DNA from: a virus
Lineage: Duplodnaviria; Heunggongvirae; Uroviricota; Caudoviricetes
IMG/VR virus record: IMGVR_UViG_2579778635_000006
Reading direction: 5' to 3' (one strand)
DNA: 36,361 bases
This document shows, in pieces, positions 1-35,427 of the stretch. Under the pieces are notes generated by a model. It worked only from the letters and a program-made list of their open reading frames with translations. It was not told the origin of the DNA and did not search any database. Position numbers and translations under genes: made by a program. Positions within the stretch are counted from its first letter, which is position 1. Each line of letters starts with the position of its first letter.

Positions 1-1056
1 TTATGACGGGGTAATGCCAACCGCTGCCGCCACTTTGTCGCCACTTGGCAGCGTTGCCAGAGGATTGAAACGGAGCGCCGTTTCCAGATGATCCGGTGCC
101 AGATGTGCGTAACGCATAGTCATTTTTATATCGTGGTGTCCGAGAATTTTTTGTAAGGCCAGAATGTTTCCACCCGACATCATGAAGTGCGCCGCAAACG
201 TATGGCGCAGAACGTGTGTGAGTTGACCGCGAGGGAGCACGATAGACGTTTTTTCCATTACGGATAAAAATTGAAAATAGCAGTCTGTGAAGAAATTGAA
301 TCCATCAAGCGCCATGATCTCTTCATAAAGCTCTTTACTGATAGGGATGCTTCTGTTTTTCTTCCCCTTCGTTCTTACAAAGGTAATTCGGTATTTAGTC
401 ACCTGTGATCGGGTAAGGTTTATTGCTTCTCGCCAGCGTGCGCCTGTGCTTAAGCATATCTTGACTACCAGTGCCAGAATTGGGTCCTGACGTTTGCAAT
501 CAGCCAGCAGTTCAACAATCTGCTCATGGGTAAGCCATGCCATCTCTTTTTCTGCGATGGTGAATTTTCGCATGTTCTCCAGTGGGTTTGGATACGACCA
601 TTCGCCCAGGCGGGATAGTTCGCTAAAAACACTACTTAGATAGCTTTGCTCCAGGTTAATGGTGACCGGGCTGGCTCCTTTCTTCCATTTCTCGCTGAAG
701 TAGATCTCACCGGTCAGGCGTTTATCTCGATAGTGGGCAAACATTTTAGAGGTGAGATTGGTTGCAAGAGGATTGCCTAGAGCGTCAACCATCAGCAGCA
801 ATTTGTCATAGACATGCTGCCCAGCAGTCAGAGATTTACCATGTAATTTGAACCATAGCTCAACCACGTCTTTCAGGGTTCGACGATCCACTGATTCGCC
901 CAGCCAGGGCTTTGATTCGGTTTCTTCCATCGTGTGACGCTCAAAAGCCAGAGCTTCGCCTTTGGTGGCGAATTGTTTACGCACACGACGCCCACTTCGT
1001 CCGGCGGGGTAACATTCGCAAAGCCATTTCCCTGTGGTGAGTTTTCGTACTGCCAT
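1..1056 (-). CDS. int: Tyrosine integrase, P2/186 Int family
   Basis: 351-aa ORF. The C-terminal catalytic region (LSTGARWREA, HVLRHTFAAHF, ILGHHDIKMTMRYAHL) fits tyrosine-recombinase signatures. It sits next to the att repeat and the cI repressor, as in P2 and 186. Confidence 0.95.
   Translation of the reverse strand: MAVRKLTTGKWLCECYPAGRSGRRVRKQFATKGEALAFERHTMEETESKPWLGESVDRRTLKDVVELWFKLHGKSLTAGQHVYDKLLLMVDALGNPLATNLTSKMFAHYRDKRLTGEIYFSEKWKKGASPVTINLEQSYLSSVFSELSRLGEWSYPNPLENMRKFTIAEKEMAWLTHEQIVELLADCKRQDPILALVVKICLSTGARWREAINLTRSQVTKYRITFVRTKGKKNRSIPISKELYEEIMALDGFNFFTDCYFQFLSVMEKTSIVLPRGQLTHVLRHTFAAHFMMSGGNILALQKILGHHDIKMTMRYAHLAPDHLETALRFNPLATLPSGDKVAAAVGITPS
22..44. repeat. attL: Putative attL core (cgctgccgccactttgtcgccac), overlapping the 3' end of int
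   Basis: Matches 33507-33529 at 21 of 23 positions, both mismatches C/T. It lies at the outer edge of the int gene. Confidence 0.6.
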
Positions 1057-1126: not shown

Positions 1127-3115
1127 TTAAAAAACATTCTTATCCCCGTGGAAAAAACGTGCAACGTTCAATAGCCAGTCGGGGGTTTTTATTTCATTTG
1201 AATTTGCTAGTATTTCTAAATATTTTTCGCAAAATTCATTTTTTTTTCCTGGTAATTCGAAATAATCCTCAATAGCTTTTTTTTCTGTAATGTTAAGATT
1301 CAAAGCGCCTCCCGATACTGAAGACTCCATTAACTGTGGGGTTTCCATAAAGGACAAACTAGTTTCTCCTTTAGTGTAAAGCATTTTCAGAGTTTCTACG
1401 TAGAAATCAGCATTAAGAGACTGCTCAATTTCTGTAGGTGGATAAACTCGATCATCAGTAACTTTAACAAGGCTTATATTAGATAAGTCTTTATCGAGCA
1501 AGAGTCTTCTTATTTTTATACTTGGTATTGTATCTGTAGCATCATATGGACTATATTTGTGATCTGTATCTAATAATAATAATACTTTTCCTGAGATTGT
1601 TGCTTTGCGATCCTCTAACGCCATAACGAGTAAATTATATATTTTTTTTACTGTAGGGGAGCCACCGACGGATAAAACTATTAGTTTCTCAATGTTTTCA
1701 TAATCCAAGTGAGCGGAAATATATTTTCTATCAGTTTTTCCTTCGCACAATATCCAGTTATAATTATTTCCAGATGTTATTGAATAAACAATTGATTGTG
1801 CTAAGTCGTGATTGCTTTTCATTTCTAAAACGTCAAGGTAAGAGCCATTTGACTCTTTTGCTAGTTCCTTTAATTCATCCTTGTAGTTTTCCAGATCGAG
1901 TGCTTTGATGTATGTTTGAGAGGGGGAAATATATATGGCTGTACCTGAGCCTGTAACAGGTAAAAAACCATACCAATGAGTTGTACAAATAGTCTGTATG
2001 CCTAGGTCGCTAATTTTTTTTATTTTATCAAATTGATTAAAACATGATGTGGCATGTAAGGATAATTCAGGTTCATCAACAGCAAGAATTGTTGAGTGCT
2101 GAGATTTTTGTGGATTATGTTTTAAGAAATTGGTAGCAAGATCTAGCAATGCTTTTCTTTTTTCTCCTGAGCTTAAATTTTGCACAGGGGTATCTTTATT
2201 AACATCATCAATATGATGTAATATTTTATCACTAAAATATGATTCAATTATTTTAGATATCATATGACGTTGAGTGAAACTATTTTGTCGCTGAGATGGT
2301 TTTTTAAATTGATATCGCCCCTCAAGCTTTGTAGTTAATTGTCTAATAAAATCATTTAAGTGCGAATTTATTGCTGTAATATCCTTTTTCTTAATGATTT
2401 TACTGATTTTTTGTTGGAGATTTTCACCTAATAAAGACTGTAATAAATCGCTTTCAATCCTTGAGTATTCGGATGTGGTTATTTCTGCAGGTAGGTAAAT
2501 ATAATTATAGATATCCTTAATTGTTATTAATAGCTTAGGTAGTATATTGTTAAAATGATATTTTTTATTATTCGTCGAACTATTTTCATTTGCGAGATCA
2601 TCAATTTGCAATCGATAATCATCTATAGATTCGAAAATTGACATGTAGGGGCGAGGAATATCATTTGCAGTTTCTTTTATTATCCCAAGGGGAATTAATA
2701 AATATTCATCTGAAGAATATTTGTATTCTAGTTGCTTCCTGTGTGATATAAATTTCTCAGCTATAGGACGTTGCAATGTATTAAAAACTTCACTTTCTAT
2801 TTGCCAAGTGATATCGCTTACGATTTCTAATGCTTTGTATAGGGAATTATTTATCTTTAGCTTGTTTTTATTTATTAAATAAATTGGCACAATGAATGGT
2901 TCTCGAGTATCGAAACCTTGACTGCGCGCTTCATTGTTGATATCAAGTCTATTGATATCAGTTTTATTTAGTACAATATCTAATGCTTGTAATATTGAGC
3001 TTTTCCCGACACCATTTTCACCAATGAGCCAAGAGGATTTATTGTTTAAAGTGAGAGGGATATAATGTTGATTTTTGAAATTCTTGAAATTTCGTAAAAT
3101 AACACCAATAATCAT
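1127..3115 (-). CDS. OLD-family ATP-dependent nuclease: N-terminal ABC-type ATPase fused to C-terminal TOPRIM (class-1 OLD or fused AriA-AriB/PARIS-like)
   Basis: 662-aa ORF. Walker A is GENGVGKSS near the N-terminus and Walker B-like is ILAVDEPELSLH. The C-terminal region has the TOPRIM signatures CEGKTD and LLLDTDHK. The gene is visibly AT-rich against the phage backbone and lies between cI and int. Confidence 0.8.
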   Translation of the reverse strand: MIIGVILRNFKNFKNQHYIPLTLNNKSSWLIGENGVGKSSILQALDIVLNKTDINRLDINNEARSQGFDTREPFIVPIYLINKNKLKINNSLYKALEIVSDITWQIESEVFNTLQRPIAEKFISHRKQLEYKYSSDEYLLIPLGIIKETANDIPRPYMSIFESIDDYRLQIDDLANENSSTNNKKYHFNNILPKLLITIKDIYNYIYLPAEITTSEYSRIESDLLQSLLGENLQQKISKIIKKKDITAINSHLNDFIRQLTTKLEGRYQFKKPSQRQNSFTQRHMISKIIESYFSDKILHHIDDVNKDTPVQNLSSGEKRKALLDLATNFLKHNPQKSQHSTILAVDEPELSLHATSCFNQFDKIKKISDLGIQTICTTHWYGFLPVTGSGTAIYISPSQTYIKALDLENYKDELKELAKESNGSYLDVLEMKSNHDLAQSIVYSITSGNNYNWILCEGKTDRKYISAHLDYENIEKLIVLSVGGSPTVKKIYNLLVMALEDRKATISGKVLLLLDTDHKYSPYDATDTIPSIKIRRLLLDKDLSNISLVKVTDDRVYPPTEIEQSLNADFYVETLKMLYTKGETSLSFMETPQLMESSVSGGALNLNITEKKAIEDYFELPGKKNEFCEKYLEILANSNEIKTPDWLLNVARFFHGDKNVF

Positions 3116-3135: not shown

Positions 3136-3726
3136 TTATTTACAAGTCATAATTACTTTAGCGATGATATTAACATCACTGATATTGCACTCTATTTTTT
3201 TTGATTTTGACTCTAGCATTATGCGGTTATTAGGTAACCTCATTAATTCTCGAACAGAATATATACCGTCAATGGCAATCAACCATAACCCATCATCAAT
3301 CTCATCCACACCTCGTCTCACGACATAAGTTATATGCTCATGCTCAAGAGCTGAGATATCTTTTAGGTCATTTGGCAATAGTGATAAATCAAAAATTAAA
3401 TAGCCATTATCAATCAGTTTGCCATCGATAATTTTCTCTCTGGTCAGGCTTACAACATGCGATTTTGCATCCACATACATGGGGCCTTCAGCTGCGGATA
3501 GCCAACGAAGTGAAATACCTGTTTCTAACGCACATTGAATTATCCAATCAGCGGGGAATGTATCTCTCATATATCGATTAGCTAACGTGCTTTTAGAAAC
3601 ACCAAGATGTTCAGCCAAAGCCTGTCGTGTCGTAAAGCCATAAGCTTCGACTAATCGCTCAATCGCAGCCTTACCACCTTTATTGGGATTTATTTTGATC
3701 TCACTTGGGTACTTTGATGTTGACAT
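3136..3726 (-). CDS. cI: Immunity repressor, 186 CI family
   Basis: 196-aa ORF. N-terminal HTH region (AYGFTTRQALAEHLGVSKSTLANRY) and C-terminal domain resemble 186 CI (recalled from memory). It is divergent from apl/cII across the switch region. Confidence 0.9.
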   Translation of the reverse strand: MSTSKYPSEIKINPNKGGKAAIERLVEAYGFTTRQALAEHLGVSKSTLANRYMRDTFPADWIIQCALETGISLRWLSAAEGPMYVDAKSHVVSLTREKIIDGKLIDNGYLIFDLSLLPNDLKDISALEHEHITYVVRRGVDEIDDGLWLIAIDGIYSVRELMRLPNNRIMLESKSKKIECNISDVNIIAKVIMTCK

Positions 3727-5649: not shown

Positions 5650-5876
5650 TGGCTGATGCAATGGATCTCGTACAGCAGCGAGTTGAAGAAGAACGCCAGC
5701 GTCATATCCGTGCTGCCCGTGCCAAAACGCCGGGCGTGTCCCGCGTGCTTTGCGTTGAGTGTGAAGCGCCAATTCCGCCAGCACGCCGCCGTGCCATTCC
5801 GGGTGTGCAACTTTGCATTACCTGTCAGGAAATCGCAGAGCTGAAAGGCAAACATTACAACGGAGGTGCTGTATGA
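5649..5876 (+). CDS. TraR/DksA-family C4 zinc-finger protein (P2 orf82-like)
   Basis: 75-aa product with CxxC...CxxC (CVECEAP...CITCQE). Translationally coupled to its neighbours. Confidence 0.75.
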   Translation: MADAMDLVQQRVEEERQRHIRAARAKTPGVSRVLCVECEAPIPPARRRAIPGVQLCITCQEIAELKGKHYNGGAV

Positions 5877-6730
5877 GCACCATCCTGAAATGGGCGGGAA
5901 ATAAAACCGCCATTATGTCCGAACTGAAAAAACATCTTCCTGCTGGTCCGCGACTGGTTGAACCTTTCGCGGGTTCCTGTGCAGTGATGATGGAGACGGA
6001 TTACCCCAGCTATCTTGTTGCGGATATTAATCCTGATTTAATCAACCTCTATAAAAAGGTTGCTGCTGATTGTGAGGCGTTTATATCTCGTGCCAGAGCT
6101 TTATTTGAGGAAGCAAACAGAGAGGTGGCTTATTACAACATAAGGCAGGAGTTTAATTACTCCACTGAAATTACTGATTTCATGAAAGCGGTATATTTTC
6201 TGTATCTCAATCGTCATGGTTACCGTGGGTTATGTCGTTATAACAAGAGCGAGCATTTCAACATTCCATACGGTAATTATAAAAATCCGTATTTCCCTGA
6301 AAAAGAAATTCGCGCATTTGCAGAGAAAGCCCAGCGAGCAACGTTTATCTGCGCCAGCTTTGATGAAACGCTGGCGATGCTGCAGGTGGGGGATGTGGTG
6401 TATTGCGATCCGCCTTATGACGGTACGTTTTCCGGCTATCACACTGATGGTTTCACTGAAGATGACCAGTATCACCTGGCATCTGTTCTTGAATATCGAT
6501 CATCAGAAGGTCATCCAGTCATTGTTTCTAACAGTGACACATCCCTGATCCGTTCGCTGTATCGAAATTTCACTCACCACTACATCAAGGCAAAACGCAG
6601 CATCGGCGTGTCGGCTGGCGAGAGTAAATCTGCAACAGAAATCATTGCTGTTTCCGGGGCGCGCTGCTGGGTGGGATTTGATCCTTCGTGTGGCGTGGAT
6701 AGTTCTGCTGTGTACGAGGTGCGTGTATGA
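5873..6730 (+). CDS. dam: DNA adenine methyltransferase (Dam-like, GATC-type N6-adenine MTase)
   Basis: Product begins [11 protein letters not shown] and contains the catalytic DPPY motif (VYCDPPYDG). ATG at 5873 overlaps the upstream stop. Confidence 0.9.
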
Positions 6731-9141
6731 GTCATGACGATATGAGCAACTCTAGCGGCTTTAACGAGGCCGCTGTAGCATTTTCATGGAACGGCCCGAA
6801 AAAGGCCATTAACCCTTATCTGGACCCGGCGGAAGTTGCGCTGGAGTCTGCACTTTCAAACCTGATCACTCTGTACGCTGCCGATAATGAGCAGGAACAG
6901 CTGCGCCGCGATGCACTGAGTGAGCAGGTCTGGGAGCGTTATTTCTTTAATGAATCCCGTGATCCTGTCCAGCGTGAAATGGAGCAGGATAAGCTCATTA
7001 GTCGGGCAAAGCTGGCGCATGAACAGCAGCGTTTTTACCCGGACATGGTCATTCTGGCGGACGTCAGCGCCCAGCCTTCCCACATCAGCAAGCCGCTGAT
7101 GCAACGTATCGAATATTTCAGCAGCCTGGGCAGGCCAAAGGCTTATTCTCGCTATCTGCGTGAGACGATTAAGCCATGTCTGGAACGACTGGAGCATGTA
7201 CGCGACAGTCAGCTATCCACTTCTTTTCGCTTTATGGCAAGCCATGAAGGGCTGGACGGCCTGCTGATCCTGCCTGAAATGAGTCAGGATCAGGTGAAAC
7301 GCCTGTCTACCCTTGTCGCTGCGCATATGAGCATGTGTCTTGATGCCGCTTGTGGTGATTTGTACGCCACCGATGATGTTAAGCCAGAAGAAATCCGCAA
7401 GACATGGGAAAGGGTGGCAGCGGAAACCCTACGTTTGGATGTCATCCCGCCTGCGTTTGAGCAACTCCGTCGGAAAAGAAACCGCCGTAAACCAGTGCCC
7501 TATGAACTCATTCCGGGCTCGCTGGCGCGTATGCTGTGCGCCGACTGGTGGTATCGGAAATTGTGGAAGATGCGTTGCGAATGGCGGGAAGAGCAGTTGC
7601 GTGCTGTCTGCCTGGTCAGCAAAAAAGCATCTCCCTATGTCAGCTATGAAGCTGTGATGCATAAACGTGAGCAGCGCCGTAAGTCGCTGGAGTTTTTCCG
7701 TTCTCATGAACTGGTGAACGAAGACGGAGACGCGCTGGATATGGAAGATGTGGTAAACGCCAGCTGCAGCAACCCGGCGCATCGCCGCAATGAGATGATG
7801 GCCTGTGTTAAAGGTCTGGAGCTTATCGCGGAAATGCGCGGTGACTGCGCCGTTTTCTACACCATTACCTGTCCGTCATGTTTCCATTCCACGCTAAATA
7901 ACGGCAGACCCAACCCGACCTGGAAAAACGCGACGGTAAGACAAAGCAGCGATTATCTGGTCGGTATGTTTGCTGCATTTCGTAAGGCGATGCACAAAGC
8001 CGGGTTGCGCTGGTATGGCGTGCGGGTGGCTGAGCCGCATCACGACGGCACAGTTCACTGGCACCTGTTGTGTTTCATGCGCAAAAAAGACCGCCGCGCC
8101 ATTACTGCATTGTTGCGTAAGTTTGCTATCCGTGAAGACCGCGAGGAGCTGGGCAATAACACGGGGCCGCGCTTTAAGTCTGAGCTGATTAACCCGCGCA
8201 AAGGAACGCCGACAAGCTACATAGCGAAATACATCAGTAAGAACATTGACGGGCGTGGTCTGGCTGGCGAGATCAGCAAGGAAACGGGTAAATCTCTTCG
8301 TGATAACGCTGAATACGTGAATGCCTGGGCGTCTTTGCATCGTGTTCAGCAATTCCGCTTCTTTGGTATTCCGGGGCGTCAGGCTTACCGTGAACTGCGA
8401 TTGCTGGCTGGTCAGGCGGCAAGGCAGCAGGGTGACAAAAAAGCAGGTGTGCCGGTACTGGATAACCCGCGCCTTGATGCCATTCTGGCTGCTGCTGATG
8501 CTGGTTGTTTTGCCACCTATATCATGAAGCAGGGAGGTGTACTGGTTCCCCGTAAATATCACCTCATCAGAACTGCTTATGAAATTAACGAAGAGCCGAC
8601 CGCCTATGGCGATCACGGTATTCGTATTTATGGCATCTGGTCACCCATTGCAGAGGGCAAGATCTGCACTCATGCAGTGAAGTGGAAAATGGTTCGTAAG
8701 GCCGTTGACGTTCAGGAGGCGGCAGCCGACCAGGGCGCTTGCGCCCCTTGGACTCGTGGCAATAACTGTCCCCTTGCTGAAAATTTGAACCAACAAGGGA
8801 AAGACAAATCAGCTGATGGGGACTCCAGAACGGATATTACCCGTATGAATGACAAGGAGTTGCACGATTACCTGCACAGTATGAGCAAAAAAGAGCGCCG
8901 GGAACTGGCTGCAAGGTTACGCCAGGTGAAACCGAAACGGCGTAAAGACTACAAACAGCGAATTACAGACCATCAGCGACAGCAGCTCGTCTATGAACTG
9001 AAGTCCAGGGGATTTGATGGCAGCGAGAAAGAAGTCGATTTGCTCCTTCGCGGCGGCAGTATTCCGTCAGGAGCAGGCCTGCGTATCTTCTATCGGAACC
9101 AGCGTCTGAAGGAAGATGATAAGTGGCGGAACCTGTATTAA
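6727..9141 (+). CDS. A: Rolling-circle replication initiator, P2 gpA family
   Basis: 804-aa ORF with the HUH-type motif VHWHLLCF and a tyrosine-containing region (YIAKYISK). Position before the cos-proximal region is as in P2. Confidence 0.95.
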
Positions 9142-9293: not shown

Positions 9294-9482
9294 ATGCAGG
9301 ACTATTTTTTGGAGTCTTTGAAGCTCCAGCGCATTGATTTTTTTCTTAAGCTTGTAGCGGCTAGTGAGTGTAGTGATGAAGAGAAGGGGCTGGCTCTGCA
9401 GTGGGTTTCTGAATTGACTGATGAACTCATGGCAAAAATCAGAAGCCACGAATACAACCGCTCAATGGATGTCATCAGCTGA
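9294..9482 (+). CDS. Small SOS-controlled protein at the position of the 186 Tum antirepressor N-terminal region (hypothetical)
   Basis: ATG at 9294 with AGGAGGA upstream. It directly follows the LexA box. 62 aa. Confidence 0.6.
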   Translation: MQDYFLESLKLQRIDFFLKLVAASECSDEEKGLALQWVSELTDELMAKIRSHEYNRSMDVIS

Positions 9483-9492
9483 GGTGACTTTT

Positions 9493-9726
9493 ATGCGCAT
9501 TGAAATAATGATCGATAAAGAGCAGAAGATTAGCCAGTCTACCCTGGACGCCCTTGAATCCGAGCTTTACCGCAATCTGCGCCCCCTGTATCCCAAAACG
9601 GTAATTCGCATTCGCAAAGGTAGCTCTAACGGTGTGGAACTAACCGGACTGCAACTGGATGAAGAAAGAAAACAAGTGATGAAAATTATGCAGAAGGTGT
9701 GGGAGGACGACAGCTGGCTGCATTAA
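9493..9726 (+). CDS. DinI-family protein
   Basis: ATG at 9493 with GAGGTGA upstream. The product (MRIEIMIDKEQKISQSTLDALESELYRNL...VWEDDSWLH) matches the DinI pattern: MRIE start, central aromatic, C-terminal acidic W. Confidence 0.8.
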   Translation: MRIEIMIDKEQKISQSTLDALESELYRNLRPLYPKTVIRIRKGSSNGVELTGLQLDEERKQVMKIMQKVWEDDSWLH

Positions 9727-9918: not shown

Positions 9919-10254
9919 TTACGAATGATCATTCTGTTTAGTCTTCATGAGAAAATCCCGAATCTTTGCCAAGTTTGAATTTTCGGGGATTGAATCCATG
10001 TACGGATCACGCTCAAACACTAATTGCTCAGATTCAACGAAAGCCTGCCACTCTACTGGGTCTAGCTCAAATCCCATTGCTGTCATATCACTTTCATCTT
10101 CCCCCTCGATCCAGTGGACTAAATAAAACAATTCATCATCAGGAGAATCATCCTCACCATCAACAATATCAACATCGGTTACAGTGATACGTAGGGTGGG
10201 ATCGATTTTTGAGACATAAATTCCTAACTGTGGTATAGGGGGAATATTGTTCAT
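9919..10254 (-). CDS. Highly acidic small protein (111 aa), hypothetical; candidate DNA-mimic/anti-restriction or immunity-type protein
   Basis: ATG with AGGAG about 6 nt upstream on the minus strand. About 26 D/E against about 7 K/R by eye. Opposite orientation to the flanking early genes, in a cos-proximal accessory region. Confidence 0.6.
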   Translation of the reverse strand: MNNIPPIPQLGIYVSKIDPTLRITVTDVDIVDGEDDSPDDELFYLVHWIEGEDESDMTAMGFELDPVEWQAFVESEQLVFERDPYMDSIPENSNLAKIRDFLMKTKQNDHS

Positions 10255-10633
10255 GGAAACTCCTTTTATTGGTGTTTGCTATTTGAATAAAAATACGCCA
10301 AACAGAGTGTTAACTGTGAATATGGAAAGAATCGTTGTAAGTACCCCGCTTAGGTGTCCCATTCTATTTTAGAGGTTCTCGTGCATATGGATTATGTTAT
10401 CTGAAAGTTAACTTCCGCTTCCCGTTCACAGCGAACATTCATCTTTGTAAACCCGTATGGTCCGTTTTTCAAGTGGCCATTCAGATACGGATTTTTACTT
10501 CTTTGACAGTGCATGACTATGCTGCATGAAATCGCATGATCGATTGAGGATCGTCTTTGCTCAGATCCGCCAGAACTGGCGGGCTTTTGCTCATGTCATG
10601 CATGTGCATGAAAACCACTGCATAAAGCGGGCA

Positions 10634-10652
10634 GGCGTGGCGGGGATACGAG
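10634..10652. other. cos: Candidate cos site (cohesive-end region)
   Basis: ggcgtggcgggga matches the first 13 nt of the 186 cohesive end as I recall it (GGCGTGGCGGGGAAAGCAT). Location between the early-region end and the portal gene is the expected one. Confidence 0.4.
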
Positions 10653-10733
10653 CGCGCGGATGAGTAATCTATACCATCATCTTGATAAAAGTATTAAAAA
10701 TGGTAAATTTAGCAAGCTACATATTAAAGGAAA

Positions 10734-12131
10734 ATGAAGATGTATGAAGTAATTGATATATCAGCGCAGGAAATTAAGGCGTTGTTAAACACTGCTGAAG
10801 ATCATTTCAATGATTTTAAAAGTAAGCAAATAGCGCCTAATAAATTACAAGAAACTTTTGTAGCATTTGCAAATGCTGATGGCGGTAATATTTATATTGG
10901 CATAGAGGATGCAGCTTCGGGGAGAGAGCGTATATCTGGTTTCAATGAGCCAGAGGAAGCGAATGCTATTATTTCGACCTTATTGGAAAATACTAATCCA
11001 GCTGTTGAGAATGTTGAGGTGGAATATTTAAGAACACCTTCCAATGGATTGATTTTACATGTGGATATACCAAAAAGCCCCAAAGTTCATTACACGGCCT
11101 CTGGCGATTGCTTTATAAGAGCTAACGCGCAAAAATTAAAAATAAAAGGTGAGCGAATTACTCAGCTTTCCTATTCTAAAGGCGCAGAACCTTATGAAAA
11201 AAAAGCAGTGGATATAGTTGAAGTAGAAGATATTCTTGAAAGTGAATATTATTCTGATTATTTACGTAGAATAGGAACGACTCAGTCACCGAGAGTTTTT
11301 TTAAAAAAACAACGACTGTTAACTAAGAAAGATGGTGAATTTGTCCCGAATGTAGGCTGTGTTTTACTATTTGATGAAGAGCCTCAAGGATGTTTAGATA
11401 CTCGATGTGCTGTAAAAGTATATCGGCTTAGAACAACTGAAGCAGAGTACAAACGTGAACAATTACAGGAAGATCCTGTAACGATTGAGGGGCCACTTGA
11501 AGTGGTTATTTTAAATACAATAGCAAAAGTAAAAGAATATGTTGATGGAGCATCATTCAAAGACGGCGAAAATCTAGTAAAACTTAGCTATCCTGCAGAA
11601 GCATTGAAGGAAATATTAGTTAATGCTGTTATTCATAGAGATTACAGCCAAAAGGATGATGTGCACGTAAAAGTTTATGACAACCGGATTGAAGTTCAAA
11701 GTCCAGGCAGATTGCCTGGATACATGACTATTAATAATTTATATGAAGAGCGGTTTTCTCGTAATCCAAATTTAGTGCGTTTGTTGCATAAACTTCCCAA
11801 TCCAGTGAACCATGATATTGGTGAGGGGCTTGATACTGCAAAAAATGAATTGCGTAAGGCCGGGTTGGTAGCCCCGGTATTTGAAGAAAGGGGCAATAAT
11901 TTTGTTGTAATAGTTAAGCATCAAACAATAGCCTCAATTGAGGATGTGATTATTAATTATTTTAAAGAAAATCCAACGGGACAGCTCACAAATAAGTTGG
12001 TTAGACAATTAAGTGGCGAAGATGACCTTCAAAAGGTTAAAAAGGCATTGCAAAAGTTAAGGGAGGAGGGCGTAATAAAACCATTAGATCCTAACGCGAA
12101 TCCTTTCAAATTTAAATATATTAAAGCTTAA
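10734..12131 (+). CDS. AlbA_2 (Schlafen-like) + HATPase_c_4 + C-terminal wHTH protein; candidate defence/exclusion cargo
   Basis: 465-aa ORF with AAGGA upstream. N-terminal AlbA_2-type signature (DFKSK...FVAFANADGGNIYIGIED), central HATPase_c_4-type signature (NAVIHRDY...DNRIEVQSPGRLPG...SRNP), then a helix-rich tail. Strongly AT-rich against the backbone. Followed by a bidirectional terminator. Confidence 0.8.
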   Translation: MKMYEVIDISAQEIKALLNTAEDHFNDFKSKQIAPNKLQETFVAFANADGGNIYIGIEDAASGRERISGFNEPEEANAIISTLLENTNPAVENVEVEYLRTPSNGLILHVDIPKSPKVHYTASGDCFIRANAQKLKIKGERITQLSYSKGAEPYEKKAVDIVEVEDILESEYYSDYLRRIGTTQSPRVFLKKQRLLTKKDGEFVPNVGCVLLFDEEPQGCLDTRCAVKVYRLRTTEAEYKREQLQEDPVTIEGPLEVVILNTIAKVKEYVDGASFKDGENLVKLSYPAEALKEILVNAVIHRDYSQKDDVHVKVYDNRIEVQSPGRLPGYMTINNLYEERFSRNPNLVRLLHKLPNPVNHDIGEGLDTAKNELRKAGLVAPVFEERGNNFVVIVKHQTIASIEDVIINYFKENPTGQLTNKLVRQLSGEDDLQKVKKALQKLREEGVIKPLDPNANPFKFKYIKA

Positions 12132-12135
12132 GTTA

Positions 12136-12165
12136 AAGGTGGAGGTTGTCTCCACCTTTTTTCAT
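12136..12165. terminator. Bidirectional rho-independent terminator between the cargo gene and portal gene Q
   Basis: aaaggtggag-gttg-tctccaccttt hairpin flanked by A- and T-runs, between convergent genes. Confidence 0.65.
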
Positions 12166-12182
12166 AGGTAATGATTTTTAAA

Positions 12183-13208
12183 TTATAGTTTATAGTGTTC
12201 GAAAGTTATTGCTTCTTCATTGATCCAATAGTTGAGATCTTGTAACTTCTTCTGAAGTGGCATCAGTTCATTCCGAACAAATACCCGGCTGGCCTTCTCC
12301 ACATCCCCAAACCCTCCAACATTATTAGGCATAATCCCCATCATTTGCGGCGGCACGCGGTGCGCAGCCATCATGTCGTCGCGGCTGACATTTTTGATAT
12401 TCAGAAATTCATCCTTCGCCGCGACTTCTGATAACGGGATGATTTGAAGCCCGTCCTTTTTGCCGTTAGGCGAGTACATAAACAGATTGCGGAAGTTGCC
12501 TGGACCTTTGGCGCTTTTCATTGCGTTGCGGAGGTTGTTCACATCCTCCTGGTTCTGCGCGGCATCGGTCATGTACATGATGAAGCCTGCATGGCTGCCG
12601 TTGATGTAATACTTACGGCGGAACAGCGTGGCGGACTCGTTGAGCAGGGCTGACGGAATGGCAGAAAGATAGCCGGGCAGGCCGTAGATCTCCTGGTTAA
12701 TGTCCGGTTCCATCAGATGAAAAATGCTGCCTTTCGTGAACTGATACGGCTGGGTTGTCATACCGTATTGCACAAACCAGTAGGTATCCAGGTCTAACCC
12801 GCGTCGGGTGTATTTTGCCAGAGCAGGCTCAAGGGCGATAACTTCACCGAAGCGGTTCGTGCGTTTCTCCAGGTAGGAGTTACCAAATACCAGATAGTCC
12901 TGCACAAAACGTGAAAAAGCCTGCTGGCTGAGCAGCGGATGGGGGATGTAGGTACTGGTCAGAATGTTGCATTTCACCGCAATTGGTGAACTGTGATGCA
13001 CGGCGGCGCGGAAGGTGCGTGCCAGTCCGTCAAAGCTTACTGGCGGCTCATACCAGCGATCTGTCTGTACGCATTCCACATAGTCCAGTAGTTCGCGGCG
13101 GTCCAGAACAGGAACGGGATCACCGAAGCTGAATGCTTCGGCTGTAGTTTGACTTTTATGCTGGATCTGGTTCGTCGACGCAGCGCGGTTCTTCTTACTC
13201 TTTCCCAT
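12183..13208 (-). CDS. Q: Portal protein (P2 gpQ family)
   Basis: Strong similarity to P2 Q as recalled (WYEPPVS, KDEFLN, SRDD, AHRVPPQ, MGI). ATG start overlaps the stop of P by 1 nt. Confidence 0.95.
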   Translation of the reverse strand: MGKSKKNRAASTNQIQHKSQTTAEAFSFGDPVPVLDRRELLDYVECVQTDRWYEPPVSFDGLARTFRAAVHHSSPIAVKCNILTSTYIPHPLLSQQAFSRFVQDYLVFGNSYLEKRTNRFGEVIALEPALAKYTRRGLDLDTYWFVQYGMTTQPYQFTKGSIFHLMEPDINQEIYGLPGYLSAIPSALLNESATLFRRKYYINGSHAGFIMYMTDAAQNQEDVNNLRNAMKSAKGPGNFRNLFMYSPNGKKDGLQIIPLSEVAAKDEFLNIKNVSRDDMMAAHRVPPQMMGIMPNNVGGFGDVEKASRVFVRNELMPLQKKLQDLNYWINEEAITFEHYKL

Positions 13209-14974
13209 CAAAAAATCTCCACAATATTACTGGTATTGGCGGACTCGCCCTGCAGTGGTTCGTTAAACAGTGCGTGCATTGTTGCCCAGGCCAGATCGGC
13301 GTGGCTGGCTTCTTCGCTGCGGCTGGCTTCATAGGTCGGGCGGTTGCCGCTGGCGGTGGTGGCGCGACGGATTGCCATGAATGACTGCGCAATGTCGGTG
13401 TGCCCGGCGTCAAACTCCAGACGGCGGTGGCTGATAATGTCGTAGGCCTTGAGCACCAGGGCGTTTTTAACGTTGGGGTTGTAGACAAACTCCCGGACGG
13501 CAGGAAAGAATGCTTTCACGTTCTCGTAAACCCCGTGACCAACGCCGGTTGAGTCGATACCGATATAAGTCACGTTGTACTGTTCGGTCAGTTTTTTGAT
13601 GGCGTCAGCCTGAGCGCGGAAGTCCATCCCGCGCCACTGGTGACGCTCAAGAATGCGGAATTTACCGCCCGATACGGCTGGCGGTGCCACCACCACGCAT
13701 CCGGCACTGTCGCCGTTCTGAGTACCTTTTGCGGGGTCATAACCGATCCATACTTCGCGCCAGCCAAACGGGCGCAGGGCCAGTGCATGAAAGTCGGTCC
13801 AGATTTCCCAGCTGTCCACCATGCACGCCTGCAGTTCGCTGAGCGGGAACACGGACGCGAGATCGTCCACGAACTCGCACATCAGCAGGTTCTGGTATTC
13901 GTCCGGGCTGTACTCCATGCGCAGCTGGTCGAGGTCGAACAGGTTACAGCCGCCGCGCACCGCATCTTCCACGGTGACTATCTGGCGGTATTGCCCGTCT
14001 GCGCACAGCAGGCCGGGGGCCAGATTGCTGTGGGACAGGTCGATGTCCACCTTGTCAGCTTTGTTGCGTCCACGGTTGAACAGCGCACCGGACCAGAACG
14101 GATAAGCACTGTGGGTCAGGCTGGATGGCGTGGAAAAATAGGTTTGTCGCCATTTCTTGTGAATAGCCATCCCGGAAGCCACTTTGCGCAGCTCCTGGAA
14201 TTTCGGGATCCAGAAATATTCATCCAGATACAGGTTGCCGTGGTAACTCTGGGCCGTGCGGGCATTGGTTCCGAGGAAGTAAAGCGTGGCCCCATTAGGA
14301 AGCACCATCGGATCGCCTTTCAGCTCCACCTCCACTTCTTTGGCGAAGTCGATGATGTACTGCTTAAAGACGTGGGCCTGTGCCTTACTGGCGGAAAGGA
14401 AAATCTGGTTACGTCCGGTCAGCAGGGCGTCAATCAGGGCTTCACGGGCAAAATAGAAGGTCGCGCCGATCTGGCGTGACTTCAGCAGGTTGCGGATGCG
14501 GTTGGTTTTTCCGGCTTCCCACCAGTGGCGCTGGTAGTTGAACATGGAGGAATGAAAGATTTCTTCCAGCTTCTCAATCTGTTCATCGGTGAAAACATTC
14601 TTTTCCGGCTGACGGCGCGGGCCTTTGTTACGGTTGGCGACGTTAGGGTTTAAGTCGGCTTCGTTGCCGCCATTGTTAAACTTGCCGATCCGCGCGTGGC
14701 GTTCCGACTGGCGCGCCAGCAGGTCAATCTCTTTGAAATCTTTCCCTTCTTTGTGCTCCTTCATAATGAGCTGGCAGTAGCGTGCGGCGGTGGTGAGCTG
14801 CATCTGATCCAGCGGCCCATAGTCACCCCACTTGTCGCGTTTTTTCCAGCTGTGAACGGTTGCAACTTTCTCGCCCAGCATTTCAGCAATGCGGGCGACG
14901 CGGTATCCCTGAAAGTACAGCAGCATGGCCTGCCGACGGGGATCGAGATCTGCGGGTGTCAGTGTGGTGTTCAT
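13208..14974 (-). CDS. P: Terminase large (ATPase) subunit (P2 gpP family)
   Basis: 588-aa ORF upstream of and co-oriented with Q; classic P2 P-Q arrangement. Confidence 0.95.
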   Translation of the reverse strand: MNTTLTPADLDPRRQAMLLYFQGYRVARIAEMLGEKVATVHSWKKRDKWGDYGPLDQMQLTTAARYCQLIMKEHKEGKDFKEIDLLARQSERHARIGKFNNGGNEADLNPNVANRNKGPRRQPEKNVFTDEQIEKLEEIFHSSMFNYQRHWWEAGKTNRIRNLLKSRQIGATFYFAREALIDALLTGRNQIFLSASKAQAHVFKQYIIDFAKEVEVELKGDPMVLPNGATLYFLGTNARTAQSYHGNLYLDEYFWIPKFQELRKVASGMAIHKKWRQTYFSTPSSLTHSAYPFWSGALFNRGRNKADKVDIDLSHSNLAPGLLCADGQYRQIVTVEDAVRGGCNLFDLDQLRMEYSPDEYQNLLMCEFVDDLASVFPLSELQACMVDSWEIWTDFHALALRPFGWREVWIGYDPAKGTQNGDSAGCVVVAPPAVSGGKFRILERHQWRGMDFRAQADAIKKLTEQYNVTYIGIDSTGVGHGVYENVKAFFPAVREFVYNPNVKNALVLKAYDIISHRRLEFDAGHTDIAQSFMAIRRATTASGNRPTYEASRSEEASHADLAWATMHALFNEPLQGESANTSNIVEIF

Positions 14975-17028: not shown

Positions 17029-17679
17029 ATGAGCCTGAGTCCCGCACGGCAGCATCGCCTGCGCGTTCAGGCTGAACAGGCCGCTCGTGAGGGTGGCAGT
17101 GTTCGCCATGCGTCGGGCTATGACCTGATGCTGCTGCAACTGGCGGAAGACCGCCGCCGTCTCAAGGGCGTTCAGTCCACGGTCAAAAAAGCGGAAATCA
17201 AAGTGGAGCTGCTGCCGAAGTACGCCGCCTGGGCGGAGGGTGTCCTGGCTGGCGGAGGCGCCCAACAGGATGACGTGCTGATGTACGTGATGCTGTGGCG
17301 CATTGATGCCGGAGATTATGCCGGGGCGCTGGAGATTGGGCGTCATGCTCTGCGTCATGGCTGGGTGATGCCGCTGGGTAACCGCAACGTGCAGACCGTG
17401 CTGGCAGAGGAAATGGCAGACGCGGCACAGAGCGCAATGCTTGCCACTACCGGCTTTGATGTCGATCTGTTGCTGCAGACGCTGGAGCTGACAGATGGTC
17501 TGGATATGCCGGACCAGTCACGGGCGCGTCTGCATAAAGCGATTGGCGCTGTCCTGAGTGAAAGCAACCCGGCTTCCGCCCTTAATCATCTCAACCATGC
17601 GTTACAGCTCGATCCCCGCAGTGGCGTGAAAAAAGACAAACAGCAGCTGGAGCGCAGACTGCGCAATGACAGCCGCTGA
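17029..17679 (+). CDS. M: Terminase small/endonuclease subunit (P2 gpM family)
   Basis: 216-aa ORF directly after N. Confidence 0.9.
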   Translation: MSLSPARQHRLRVQAEQAAREGGSVRHASGYDLMLLQLAEDRRRLKGVQSTVKKAEIKVELLPKYAAWAEGVLAGGGAQQDDVLMYVMLWRIDAGDYAGALEIGRHALRHGWVMPLGNRNVQTVLAEEMADAAQSAMLATTGFDVDLLLQTLELTDGLDMPDQSRARLHKAIGAVLSESNPASALNHLNHALQLDPRSGVKKDKQQLERRLRNDSR

Positions 17680-31618: not shown

Positions 31619-32100
31619 TGATGGTGCTGGGATTGTACGTGTTTATGCTGCGCACCGTGCCGTATCAGGAACTGCAGTATCAACGCAGTTGGCGACATGC
31701 GGCAAACAGCCGGGTAAACCGTCGTCCGTCCACGCAGTTTCTGGGACCGGAAAACGACATGCTGACGCTTTCCGGTGTTCTTATGCCGGAGATAACAGGC
31801 GGCAGGCTGTCGTTGCTGGCACTTGAGCAGATGGCAGAACAGGGGAAAGCATGGCCTCTGATTGAAGGCAGCGGCACGATTTACGGCATGTATGTGATTG
31901 AGGGACTGAATCAGACTAAAACGGAGTTTTTCCGCGACGGTATGCCGCGCCGGATTGAGTTCACCCTGTCGCTCAAACGGGTGGATGAATCCCTGTCCGA
32001 TATGTTCGGTGATCTCAGTGCGCAGCTGAATAATCTGCAGGGAACGGCAACATCTGCCTTAAGCGATATCAGTAAAACGGTGGGAGGGCTTCTGTCGTGA
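31615..32100 (+). CDS. U: Tail protein (P2 gpU family)
   Basis: 161 aa, overlapping the T stop (ATGA). Confidence 0.9.
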   Translation: MMMVLGLYVFMLRTVPYQELQYQRSWRHAANSRVNRRPSTQFLGPENDMLTLSGVLMPEITGGRLSLLALEQMAEQGKAWPLIEGSGTIYGMYVIEGLNQTKTEFFRDGMPRRIEFTLSLKRVDESLSDMFGDLSAQLNNLQGTATSALSDISKTVGGLLS

Positions 32101-33197
32101 ATTTCAGCTCTGAACTGCTTAACAAAGGCAACAAAACTCCGGCATTCAGCATCAGTATTGAAGGCAGGGATATCACCACTGTGCTGGACAACCGCCTGAT
32201 TGGGCTGACGCTGACGGATAACCGGGGATTTGAAGCGGACCAGCTTGATCTGGAGCTGGACGACGCCGATGGAAAAATCGTGCTGCCGCGCCGTGGTGCG
32301 GTCATTACGCTGGCGCTGGGCTGGAAGGGGCAGCCGCTTTTCCCGAAAGGGGCATTCACGGTGGACGAGATTGAACACACTGGCGCACCGGACCGCCTGA
32401 CTATCCGGGCGCGAAGTGCTGATTTTCGGGAAACCCTGAATCCCCGCCGTGAAAAATCGTGGCATAACACCACCATCGGGGAAGTGGTGAAGGAAATAGC
32501 CGCGCGGCACAAGCTGAAGATGGCACTGGGTAAAGAGCTGTCGGATAAGCCCGTGGAGCATATAGACCAGACTAATGAGAGTGACGGCAGTTTTCTGATG
32601 CGACTGGCGCGACAGTACGGTGCCATCGCGTCGGTGAAAAATGGCAATCTGTTATTCATCCGGCAGGGGCAGGGCAAAAGCGCCACTGGTAAACCACTGC
32701 CAGTGATCACTATCACACGCAAGGACGGCGACAGTCACCGATTTACCCTGGCAGATCGCGGAGCCTACACGGGCGTAATTGCCAGCTGGTTGCATACCCG
32801 TGAACCCGCGAAGAAAGAAAGCACCACGGTGAAGCGTAAGCGCAGAACTAAGAAGCAGAAGAAAGAGCCGGAAGCGAAGCAGGGCGATTACCTGGTGGGT
32901 ACGGATGAAAACGTGCTGGTACTTAATCGCACTTATGCCAACCGGAGCAACGCCGAACGGGCAGCGAAAATGCAGTGGGAACGCCTGCAACGCGGCGTTG
33001 CATCATTCTCGCTACAACTGGCGGAAGGGCGGGCAGATCTCTACACAGAAATGCCTGTGAAGGTCAGTGGCTTTAAACAGCCGATAGATGATGCGGAATG
33101 GACCATTACGACTCTGACGCATACCGTCAGCCCGGATTACGGTTTTACGACCAGTCTGGAGCTTGAAGTGAGGATTGATGATTTCGAAATGGAATGA
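32097..33197 (+). CDS. D: Tail protein D (P2 gpD family, late control D)
   Basis: 366-aa ORF with GTG start overlapping the U stop; last gene of the tail operon. Confidence 0.9.
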   Translation: MNFSSELLNKGNKTPAFSISIEGRDITTVLDNRLIGLTLTDNRGFEADQLDLELDDADGKIVLPRRGAVITLALGWKGQPLFPKGAFTVDEIEHTGAPDRLTIRARSADFRETLNPRREKSWHNTTIGEVVKEIAARHKLKMALGKELSDKPVEHIDQTNESDGSFLMRLARQYGAIASVKNGNLLFIRQGQGKSATGKPLPVITITRKDGDSHRFTLADRGAYTGVIASWLHTREPAKKESTTVKRKRRTKKQKKEPEAKQGDYLVGTDENVLVLNRTYANRSNAERAAKMQWERLQRGVASFSLQLAEGRADLYTEMPVKVSGFKQPIDDAEWTITTLTHTVSPDYGFTTSLELEVRIDDFEME

Positions 33198-33287: not shown

Positions 33288-33506
33288 ATGATGATTTGCC
33301 CACTGTGTGGAAGTGCCGCCCATACTCGCAGCAGTTTTCAGGTATCTTCATTGACCAAAGAGCGTTACAACCAGTGCCAGAACATTAACTGCAGCCATAC
33401 TTTTGTTACCCATGAAACTTTTGTTCGTTCGATTGCAACGCCAAAAGAGTCAAATCCGGTTCAGCCGCATCCAATGAAATCAGGACAGGTGGCGCTCTCT
33501 CTTTGA
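33288..33506 (+). CDS. ogr: Late gene transcriptional activator, Ogr/Delta/186 B zinc-finger family
   Basis: 72-aa product MMICPLCGSAAHTRSS...KERYNQCQNINCSHTF with four Cys, matching the P2 Ogr pattern (CPLC...CQNxNC). Located just inside the right att repeat. Confidence 0.9.
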   Translation: MMICPLCGSAAHTRSSFQVSSLTKERYNQCQNINCSHTFVTHETFVRSIATPKESNPVQPHPMKSGQVALSL

Positions 33507-33529
33507 CGCTGCCGCCATTTTGTCGCCAT
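33507..33529. repeat. attR: Putative attR core (cgctgccgccattttgtcgccat)
   Basis: 21/23 match to 22-44. It starts right after the ogr stop; host genes follow. Confidence 0.6.
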
Positions 33530-33741
33530 CGTTAAAAAACAGTGCTTCTAACATCATGATTTTAAAAGGCATAAATTTCAGGCAACAAAAAACCCATCAA
33601 CCTTGAACCGAAATGGCGGGGTTGATGGGCTCCACAAAATGGGGACATCAAAGAAAAGCAGTGGCACTAATTAAGACTGATGCCCTGCGGAAAAGTTCTG
33701 CGGTTGTGCAAAAAAATTTCATTTTCAGGGCAACTTCAGTT

Positions 33742-35427
33742 TTATCCTAATCCTGGCCATACCATGACGATGATTGTCCCTGCCAGCGTCAGCAGGACGT
33801 TGGCGATTGCGTAGGTGCCCGCATAGCCCAGCGCAGGGATGTTACTGCGAGCTGTATCACTGATGATCTCCATTGCCGGCGCGCAGGTGCGTGCGCCCAT
33901 CATTGCGCCGAACAACAGTGCGCGGTTCATTCGCAATACATAAGCACCGAACAAGAAACAGATAACCACGGGCACAAGACTGACAATTAATCCGGCAATC
34001 AACATCTGACCGCCAATCGCGCCCAGGCCGTTATTAATACCGCTACCGGCGCTCAGACCAACGCCTGCCATAAACACCATCAAGCCGAACTCTTTCACCA
34101 TGCTTAATGCACCTTGCGGAATGTAACCGAAGGTCGGGTGGTTAGCACGCATAAAGCCCAGCATAATTCCGGCGAATAACAACCCGGCAGCGTTCCCCAT
34201 GCCGAAACTGAATGTGCTGAACTGGAAGGTGATCATCCCGATCATCAGCCCAATAACAAAGAAGGCGCAGAATGCCAGCAGGTCAGTGACCTGGCTGTGA
34301 ATCGAGATAAAGCCGATGCGATCGGCGATGGTTTTTACGCGGCGGGCATCGCCGCTGACTTGTAAAACGTCACCTTTGTTAAGCACGACGTTGTCATCTA
34401 TCGGCATCTCAATCTGGCTACGAATGACGCGGTTAAGGAAGCAACCGTGATCGGTCAACTTCAGTTGTGCGAGACGTTTACCTACAGCGTTATGGTTTTT
34501 AACGACCACTTCTTCAGTGACGATACGCATGTCGAGAAGGTCACGATCGAAAACTTCTTTACCGTTACGGAAGCTGGGATCGAGTCGGGCATGGGCGTCG
34601 GGATAGCCTACCAACGCTATTTCATCGCCCATTTGTAGCACGGCATCACCGTCTGGATTTGCCAGAATCCCGTTACGTCGAATACGTTCAATGTAGCAGC
34701 CGGTTTGTCGATAAATACCCAGTTCACGCAGATTTTTGCCGTCGGTCCAGGCCACCAGTTCCGGGCCGACGCGATAGGCGCGGATCACCGGTAAATAAAC
34801 CTTACGGTTGGCATCAGTGTCCAGGCCACGTTCGCGGGCGATTTGCTGGGCGCTGGTCTGTAAGTCCTGATGCTGCAATTTCGGCAAGTAACGCGCACCA
34901 ACAATCAAACTCACCAGACCGATTAAATAGGTTAAGGCATACCCGAGGCTCAGATTATCCAGTGCCAGTGAGAGCTGCCTGCTTTCCATGCCGGAATGAC
35001 GCAGTGTATCGCCAGCACCGACCAGAACCGGTGTCGACGTCATAGAGCCTGCTAACATACCGGCCGTCAGGCCAATATCCCAGCCAAACAGCTTACCTAA
35101 CCCTAAGGCGATCACCAGCGCACTGCCAACCATCACCAGTGCTAACATTAGGTAATTTTTCCCATCGCGAAAAAAAATGGAAAAAAAGTTCGGTCCGGCT
35201 TCGACCCCGACGCAGAAAATAAACAGCATAAAGCCAAGATTAAGCGCATCGGTGTTAATGCTGAAATGTTGTTGGCCTAATAACAGCGATACGACTAAAA
35301 CGCCAATGGAATTACCCAGTTGGATCGAACCAAGTCGTAACTTTCCGAGACATAGCCCAAGCGCGAGGACCACAAATAATAACAGAATGTAATTCCCATT
35401 TAACAATTCGGCGACGTTTATATTCAC
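33742..35427 (-). CDS. ybjL: Putative transport protein YbjL (AAE-family transporter with two TrkA_C domains), host gene
   Basis: 561-aa product recognised as E. coli YbjL. Apparent GTG start. Confidence 0.93.

Follow-up and report, generated by a model that had tools for sequence, protein, structure and literature searches.

A core cos signal is common to phage P2 and its satellite P4 (Ziermann & Calendar 1990, as reported in PMC9122126, PMC3931495 and PMC5694545). According to PMC9122126, P4 has nothing but cos in common with its helper. The conserved cos core described in the accessible portions of this literature comprises just 55 bp. A cos sequence has been reported for SEN8, a Salmonella phage related to Fels-2 and RE-2010; as far as the paper says, it was found during annotation and not by end mapping (PMC5427200). 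Hotspots for cargo genes adjacent to cos are also documented (PMC9122126; PMC5694545, citing Dodd & Egan 1996 and Nakayama 1999).

The DNA analysed here, called the window throughout, is a viral sequence of 36,361 nucleotides (IMG/VR record IMGVR_UViG_2579778635_000006). It is a P2-family (Peduoviridae) prophage of the Fels-2/SEN8 type in an Escherichia-like chromosome. Pfam assignments give the order gpA, DinI-like protein, cargo, cos, cargo, portal, TerL and, further on, TerS, and cos has the gene A (replication) side on one flank and the Q/P genes on the other, exactly as in P2 and 186. The following genes are referred to below (Pfam assignments unless indicated).

1-1056, minus strand: integrase
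3136-3726, minus strand: CI repressor
5813-6730, plus strand: D12-class adenine methylase (Dam-like)
6727-9141, plus strand: gpA replication protein
9421-9726, plus strand: DinI/Tum-like protein
9919-10254, minus strand: left cargo slot, open reading frame of 111 aa
10734-12131, plus strand: right cargo slot, 465-aa protein with SLFN_AlbA_2 and HATPase_c_4 domains
12183-13211, minus strand: portal protein, gpQ-like
13208-14974, minus strand: large terminase, gpP-like, with an N-terminal Terminase_5 domain (PF03237/PF17289/PF06056)
17029-17679, plus strand: small terminase, gpM-like (PF05944, E = 2.4e-40)
32097-33197, plus strand: gpD
33584-33662, minus strand: RybB sRNA (Rfam, 105 bits)

The RybB sRNA marks the host flank. 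Beside it, just past the phage late genes, is a 561-aa ORF (33742-35427, minus strand) at the position which in E. coli 2017.11.01CC is occupied by the ybjL antiporter gene. From these two features, the right prophage junction can be put at around 33400-33580. A tRNA was not detected in the window.

The cos region lies in a gap of 480 bp between the divergent ORFs of the two cargo slots. Its conservation was assessed in 122 anchored loci, namely 117 viral contigs collected with a degenerate core pattern, plus reference phages. Because the pattern spans -23 to +13 relative to the top-strand nick, a single type of cos core is favoured in the set. The sequences also share descent, so that all counts among the 122 loci overstate the number of independent observations. 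The following features were annotated.

10509-10658, no strand assigned: conserved cos island of 150 bp, -125 to +25 from the top-strand nick (delimited by blastn and by the information content of the 122 loci)
10510-10515, plus strand: distal box 1, TGCATG, GCAT core at -123 (79 of 122 loci; the least fixed position, -124 to -119)
10523-10528, plus strand: distal box 2, TGCATG, GCAT core at -110 (97 of 122 loci)
10533-10538, plus strand: distal box 3, CGCATG, GCAT core at -100 (106 of 122 loci)
10538-10541 and 10549-10552, no strand assigned: GATC (Dam) sites at -96 and -85 (46 and 47, respectively, of the 47 loci of the window's cos subtype)
10567-10582, plus strand: inverted repeat CCGCCAG-AA-CTGGCGG, followed by TTTT at 10585-10588 (terminator scan)
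10598-10616, plus strand: proximal element (from conservation counts), an inverted pair ATGCA-N2-TGCAT (10598-10602 and 10605-10609) with AAAACC (10611-10616)
10625-10633, plus strand: AAGCGGGCA, conserved bases directly before the top-strand nick; they lie within the collecting pattern, so that their conservation in the 122 loci is partly by construction, and are independently kept in P2, 186, PSP3 and P4
10634-10652, plus strand: cosN, the 19-nt cohesive-end sequence GGCGTGGCGGGGATACGAG (by homology to SEN8, P2, 186 and PSP3)
10653-10658, plus strand: CGCGCG, a short conserved stretch bordering the cut towards the left end; the counterpart in P2 and 186 is TGCGCGC

The locus had attracted attention in a sequence-only reading because a G-rich segment resembles the start of the P2/186-type cohesive end and is followed by divergent bases. 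This segment, GGCGTGGCGGGGA, is indeed present at 10634-10646, and the 19-mer that it opens, GGCGTGGCGGGGATACGAG, is letter-for-letter the cos reported for SEN8 (PMC5427200). The linear SEN8 record terminates exactly at the base equivalent to 10633, the predicted nick. The 19-mer occurs a single time in the window, even when 3 mismatches are permitted, and 0 occurrences are expected by chance. The cohesive ends of P2, 186, PSP3 and P4 have been defined experimentally, and all four records start at the annotated end. They can be aligned with the window over about -125 to +25, and no gap is needed. Identity is 76-80% over -30 to +25 and falls to 16-39% in the next 100 bp on either side. The window thus has the conserved stretch of about 55 bp, including the overhang, that P2-related phages and P4 have in common. 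The overhang has the form GGCG(A/T)GGCGGGG-N7 and is identical to that of P2 at 14 of 19 bases, to those of 186 and PSP3 at 15 of 19, and to that of SEN8 at all 19. The cos-site reading is borne out by the identity with SEN8, the end of the SEN8 record and the gapless alignment within the P2 family.

The last six overhang bases differ between the window (ATACGAG) and P2, 186, PSP3 and P4 (AAGCAC or AAGCAT). However, nine variants of the 19-mer were found in the cos regions sampled, and that of the window is the commonest (47 of 122). The window's cos subtype co-occurs strictly with a terminase clade that is 92-100% (TerL) and 80-99% (TerS) identical to the terminase of the window, while cos lineages of the P2/186 type have terminases with just 62-66% (TerL) and 48-52% (TerS) identity to it. 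The divergent bases are therefore considered a subtype of the Fels-2 lineage and give no sign of decay. A second difference concerns the block from -19 to -15, which is ACTGC in the window and GCCCC or GACCC in P2, 186, PSP3 and P4, and which weakens a hairpin next to the nick. With a gpP-type large and a gpM-type small terminase subunit both encoded on the same element, the locus shows all of the defining features of a P2-family cos site that can be assessed from sequence. Very probably, 10509-10658 is a functional cos (packaging and cleavage) site with a one-sided, cosB-like right arm of GCAT boxes.

The extent of this site exceeds the published core. When the region was compared by blastn with 50,697 phage records, matches were confined to about 10508-10658 and were found in 81-89 records, which are from Klebsiella, Yersinia, Salmonella, Escherichia and Erwinia phages. 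Nearly a quarter of the complete E. coli genomes also match (1303 of 5426), and most of them share 10508/10509-10658 alone. In RefSeq, the matching E. coli island carries no annotation. The island is flanked by unrelated DNA on both sides. Among the 122 anchored loci, each position outside -127 to +27 carries an information content of about 0.1 bit, and the values rise sharply within. The island is strongly asymmetric: it extends 125 bp from the nick towards the right end, but includes just the overhang and about 6 bp towards the left end. Judged by this conservation, the unit under selection is about 150 bp and not the published 55 bp.

The right-end arm carries copies of a short motif. GCATG occurs at 10511, 10524, 10534, 10600 and 10606 on the plus strand and at 10597 on the minus strand, and TGCAT at 10510, 10523, 10599, 10605 and 10619 (plus) and at 10598 (minus). 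Merged, these sites amount to six separate plus-strand (T)GCAT(G) cores (10511, 10524, 10534, 10600, 10606 and 10620), and the cluster of at least six motifs that had been noticed is real, with a span of 115 bp. Elsewhere in the window there are at most two cores per 115 bp. When the 58 observed sites were placed uniformly at random, 2 of 20000 trials gave six cores within 115 bp, and first-order Markov simulation did so in 1 of 300 runs. A test based on the 4-mer GCAT alone was discarded for lack of significance, since a maximum of at least six was reached in 17 of 200 simulations. The significance of the cluster thus comes from the 5-mer definition and, above all, from conservation. An apparent avoidance of GCATG/TGCAT across the window (0.41-0.44 of the dinucleotide expectation) was also considered and discarded. 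The same ratio is 0.55-0.66 in a 50-kb sample of E. coli K-12 and 0.76-0.84 in PSP3, and the maximal-order Markov ratio in the window is 0.83-0.87, so that the depletion largely reflects the host, and any avoidance beyond that is weak at best.

Conservation differs between the individual motifs. Those at 10599-10603 and 10619-10623 occur in just 4 and 3, respectively, of the 122 related cos regions and are thus private variants of the window. In the proximal element, TGCA at -35 is found in 101, TGCAT at -29 in 119 and GCAT at -28 in 121 of the 122 loci. The GCAT cores at -123, -110, -100 and -28 are retained at frequencies of 0.89-1.0 in P4 and in nine P4-like loci, identified as such by their homologues of psu, sid, delta and alpha. 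As cos is all that these satellites share with their helper, the retention of the boxes points to the helper's packaging machinery.

The spacing of the boxes is more constant than their letters. Of 9 lineages, 8 have two GCA(T/G) cores exactly 10 bp apart at -110±1, as do 108 of the 122 loci; pairs with this spacing are almost absent elsewhere within ±300 bp. A GCA(T/G) core at -28 is present in all nine lineages. Among the lineages with the 10-bp pair are phages from four genera in which the boxes are positioned as follows.

Erwinia phage ENT90: distal GCAT at -124, -120, -111 and -101; proximal core at -28
Ralstonia phage YO139_2: distal GCAT at -109 and -99, GCAG at -89; proximal core at -28
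Stenotrophomonas phage Smp131: distal GCAG at -128, -111 and -101; proximal core at -28
Pseudomonas phage phiCTX: distal GCAG at -109, -99, -83 and -37; proximal core at -28

A strict column-by-column conservation test over the nine lineages gave a null result (Fisher p = 1). This can be attributed to shifts of the distal boxes by ±1 bp between lineages, and the spacing test was used instead. In P2, the similarity of the distal arm to the window does not exceed background outside the boxes. Distal GCAT boxes were not found in Aeromonas phage LPM4 (vB_AsaM_LPM4). This phage has three direct repeats AGGATC at -128, -109 and -97 and keeps the proximal TGCAT at -29, and from its sequence the distal recognition motif looks as if it had been swapped. 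The pair at -110/-100 and the core at -28 are repeats at a fixed distance that are conserved independently of the flanking genes. The comparison supports the earlier proposal that the motifs may form an array recognised by terminase. Fixed offsets, retention in P4-like elements and a constant geometry speak for it, with conservation limited to four or five of the six motifs.

The arm also contains the inverted repeat at 10567-10582, which is the small hairpin with a T-run that had been seen between 10566 and 10590 and was picked up by the terminator scan. It has a stem of 7 bp with 5 GC pairs followed by CTTTTG, and in this it resembles a Rho-independent terminator on the plus strand. Its folding energy of -13.3 kcal/mol is not exceptional when compared with shuffled sequence (z = -0.99). 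An inverted repeat at -67 to -52 with at least 5 of 7 complementary pairs was found in 73 of 122 loci, and complementarity is 19-30% with a slid partner. Its sequence varies by swaps between C:G and G:C and by flips of the loop between AA and TT, and it is different in P4. As an example, the central bases at -60/-59 are AA in 18 loci (GCCCGCCAGAACTGGCGGGC) and TT in 9 loci (GCCCGCCAGTTCTGGCGGGC), with unchanged arms. This speaks for a structural or transcriptional role of the repeat rather than for a sequence-specific terminase site. In the lineage of the window, the predicted hairpin and T-run probably keep rightward transcription from running into cos.

This raises the question whether the whole arm might serve such a purpose. 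The locus would then still be a cos site, with recognition confined to the 55-bp core, while the boxes and the inverted repeat insulate against transcription and/or bind a host architectural protein. Several observations fit. Terminator-like hairpins, each with a T-run, occur on both strands of the island (10566-10583 on the plus strand, 10630-10615 on the minus strand), at the corresponding offset ENT90 has a strong hairpin and then T8, and the annotated terminators tQ, tW and t95b bracket cos in P2 and 186. In addition, the accessible parts of the literature mention the 55-bp core alone, and the distal boxes may thus be dispensable or merely stimulatory. However, the T-run is limited to the window's cos subtype and ENT90; 186, PSP3 and P4 have the inverted repeat without it, and in P2 the repeat is absent at -67 to -52. 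A terminator therefore cannot explain the conservation of the arm. Moreover, the boxes are short direct repeats and form no hairpins. Their letter varies by phage lineage (from GCAT to GCAG) at constant geometry, and a phage-encoded reader fits this better than a host protein that is common to the hosts. We consider it unlikely that the arm has a purely insulating or architectural function.

A more specific variant of the packaging reading concerns the GATC sites, which lie between the cos boxes. The pair at -96 and -85 is absent from the P2 and 186 cos types. A third GATC (10564-10567) is private to the window and completes the sole triple GATC cluster in it. A gene for a Dam-class methylase was found at 20 of 23 loci of the window's cos subtype but at 0 of 33 loci of the P2/186 type, a difference which is confounded with lineage. 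The pac site of phage P1 has seven hexamers TGATCA/G, and its cleavage is regulated by Dam methylation (PMC10028697). The window resembles P1 pac in having a GATC cluster inside the putative recognition arm and in belonging to a lineage that encodes its own Dam-class methylase. It differs in having two conserved GATC sites and not seven, and in that a cos mechanism is used and not headful packaging. By analogy, the right arm might be the cosB of P2-family terminases and, at the same time, the GATC pair of the Fels-2 lineage might make cos Dam-sensitive in a way similar to P1 pac. This combination appears doubtful to us. If it were true, packaging would be timed to replicated or methylated DNA, and phased GCA(T/G) boxes at about -110, -100 and -28 would constitute the recognition region from enterobacterial phages to those of Pseudomonas and Stenotrophomonas.

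Cargo genes on both sides of the site had been noted as well, correctly so, and such an arrangement is already documented for the P2 family (PMC9122126, PMC5694545). The 111-aa ORF of the left slot has no match to a Pfam or PADLOC family; E. coli BL21 and numerous further strains carry the same gene at the left of cos. In the right slot, the DNA has 31-41% GC and a promoter-like site at 10682-10709. A close relative of its product is absent from the deposited records of P2-like phages, and the closest matches among phage records, from Gordonia and Mycobacterium phages, are just 24-31% identical. The protein shows a partial match to the PADLOC pAgo profile (E = 1e-19). We consider it a candidate defence protein, and the slots flanking cos would then be slots for anti-phage cargo. 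Elsewhere in the prophage, a 662-aa AAA_15 ATPase is encoded between integrase and CI repressor (1127-3115, minus strand); its PADLOC matches are AriA-like (E = 2e-23) and OLD-like (E = 1.5e-17), and this locus looks like a second cargo or defence slot.

The two slots next to cos have been exchanged separately. E. coli genomes that match 9700-10658/10666 (left cargo and cos) are 99.5-99.8% identical and have a different right cargo; those that match 10509-12200 (cos, right cargo and portal) are 99% identical and have a different left cargo. The exchange breakpoints are thus at 10509 and at 10658-10666. In one strain that shares the left cargo, a reverse transcriptase of the retron Ec67 type is encoded on the right of cos, and in one that shares the right cargo, another gene stands on the left. 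The combination of left and right cargo present in the window occurs in 0 of 5426 complete E. coli genomes. As these genomes match either the left or the right half and never both, the cos island is an anchor between two independently exchanged slots, and from these matches the prophage looks like a recombinant across it. A unit of 150 bp that is unable to change would provide a fixed stretch of homology between the slots. This lends support to the published proposal that the hotspots next to cos are exchanged through recombination at this shared sequence.

Given this exchange, the boxes could alternatively be signals of the cargo hotspots, either operators or sites for a recombinase, with no part in packaging. 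The edges of the island coincide exactly with the exchange breakpoints, and the old-tin transcript of P2 starts about 150 bp upstream of the cut, near box 1. Breakpoints at the edges of an essential site are, however, expected from purifying selection alone, and no recombinase is linked to the cos locus. Identical boxes are found beside wholly different cargo genes in either orientation, and psu is located upstream in P4-like satellites. We therefore regard such a role as very improbable. It is just as improbable that the site is a decayed relic in a defective prophage with an inherited, currently functionless motif cluster: two private substitutions in the island do create the extra TGCATs at 10599 and 10619, but these changes affect positions that vary in the family and all family-wide positions are intact, the portal, TerL, TerS, gpA, Dam, cI and integrase genes encode full-length proteins that match Pfam strongly, and the 19-mer is identical to that of SEN8, an isolated, plaque-forming phage.

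For the preferred reading, a cos site with a cosB-like right arm, the following mechanism is proposed. By homology, the gpP-like large and the gpM-like small subunit would nick the top strand between 10633 and 10634 and the bottom strand between 10652 and 10653, which would generate 19-nt 5′ cohesive ends with the sequence GGCGTGGCGGGGATACGAG. Recognition would be one-sided, with the right arm acting as cosB. Seen from the nick, this arm would present the proximal inverted pair ATGCA-N2-TGCAT with AAAACC at -36 to -18, then about 65 bp with the inverted repeat, and then two to three direct GCAT boxes (-100, -110 and about -123). The boxes would be the likely docking sites for an oligomeric terminase component, and with their spacing of 10 bp, the two distal boxes that are best conserved would face the same side of the helix.

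On the available comparisons, the GCAT boxes probably guide the packaging enzyme, and the gpM-like small terminase (PF05944) is the candidate reader. Residues 11-68 of TerL, in the Terminase_5 domain, show a sub-threshold match to sigma-70 region 4, a helix-turn-helix, so that the large subunit could read the cos boxes besides gpM. No solved structure related by sequence to the small or the large terminase was found. A full-text search of the accessible literature returned no description of TGCAT boxes at the P2 cos, and this literature reports neither binding of gpM or gpP to the boxes nor effects of box deletions. The array is thus a concrete target for a first biochemical definition of DNA recognition by gpM/gpP. 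The 150-bp unit and its box geometry are common to several Peduoviridae genera and their satellites, and this should be useful for P2/P4 cosmids and transducing particles, for which flank length is already suspected to affect the yield (PMC9594776).

The locus can be compared with several known systems. It agrees with cos of P2, 186, PSP3 and P4 in genome position, in the ungapped register and in GCAT boxes at -123, -110, -100, -35 and -28, and the differences are those in the overhang and in the block at -19 to -15 described above. It is also similar to SEN8, to the Fels-2/RE-2010/SopEPhi group (Felsduovirus-like) and to prophages of Klebsiella, Yersinia and E. coli, with an island identity of 86-91%, the conserved GATC pair and an accompanying Dam gene. 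In contrast to this group, the window has different cargo on both sides and the private TGCATs at 10599 and 10619. The cos sites of phiCTX and Smp131 have the same core, with distal cores at -109/-99 or -111/-101 and a proximal one at -28, but their boxes read GCAG(G/A) where the window has GCATG, and phiCTX has further copies at -83 and -37. The GenBank record of phiCTX annotates 'R' repeats R3-R6 around cos; as attP adjoins cos in this phage, some of these may serve integration.

In lambda, cosB consists of R-sites for gpNu1 and an IHF site on one side of cosN. The window resembles it in having short repeats on one side of the nick, spread over about 100 bp. There is, however, no sequence relationship; the boxes have 5-6 bp compared to about 16 bp in lambda, the arm is at the right end of the mature DNA, and P2-family terminase is unrelated at the sequence level to lambda Nu1/A. 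When the arm was read by eye, an IHF consensus was not evident. In summary, the kind of element, its position and the exact 19-mer are already known, and as a cos site the locus is ordinary. What sequence comparison appears to add is, besides the lineage-confounded GATC/Dam observation, the extended architecture of phased boxes.
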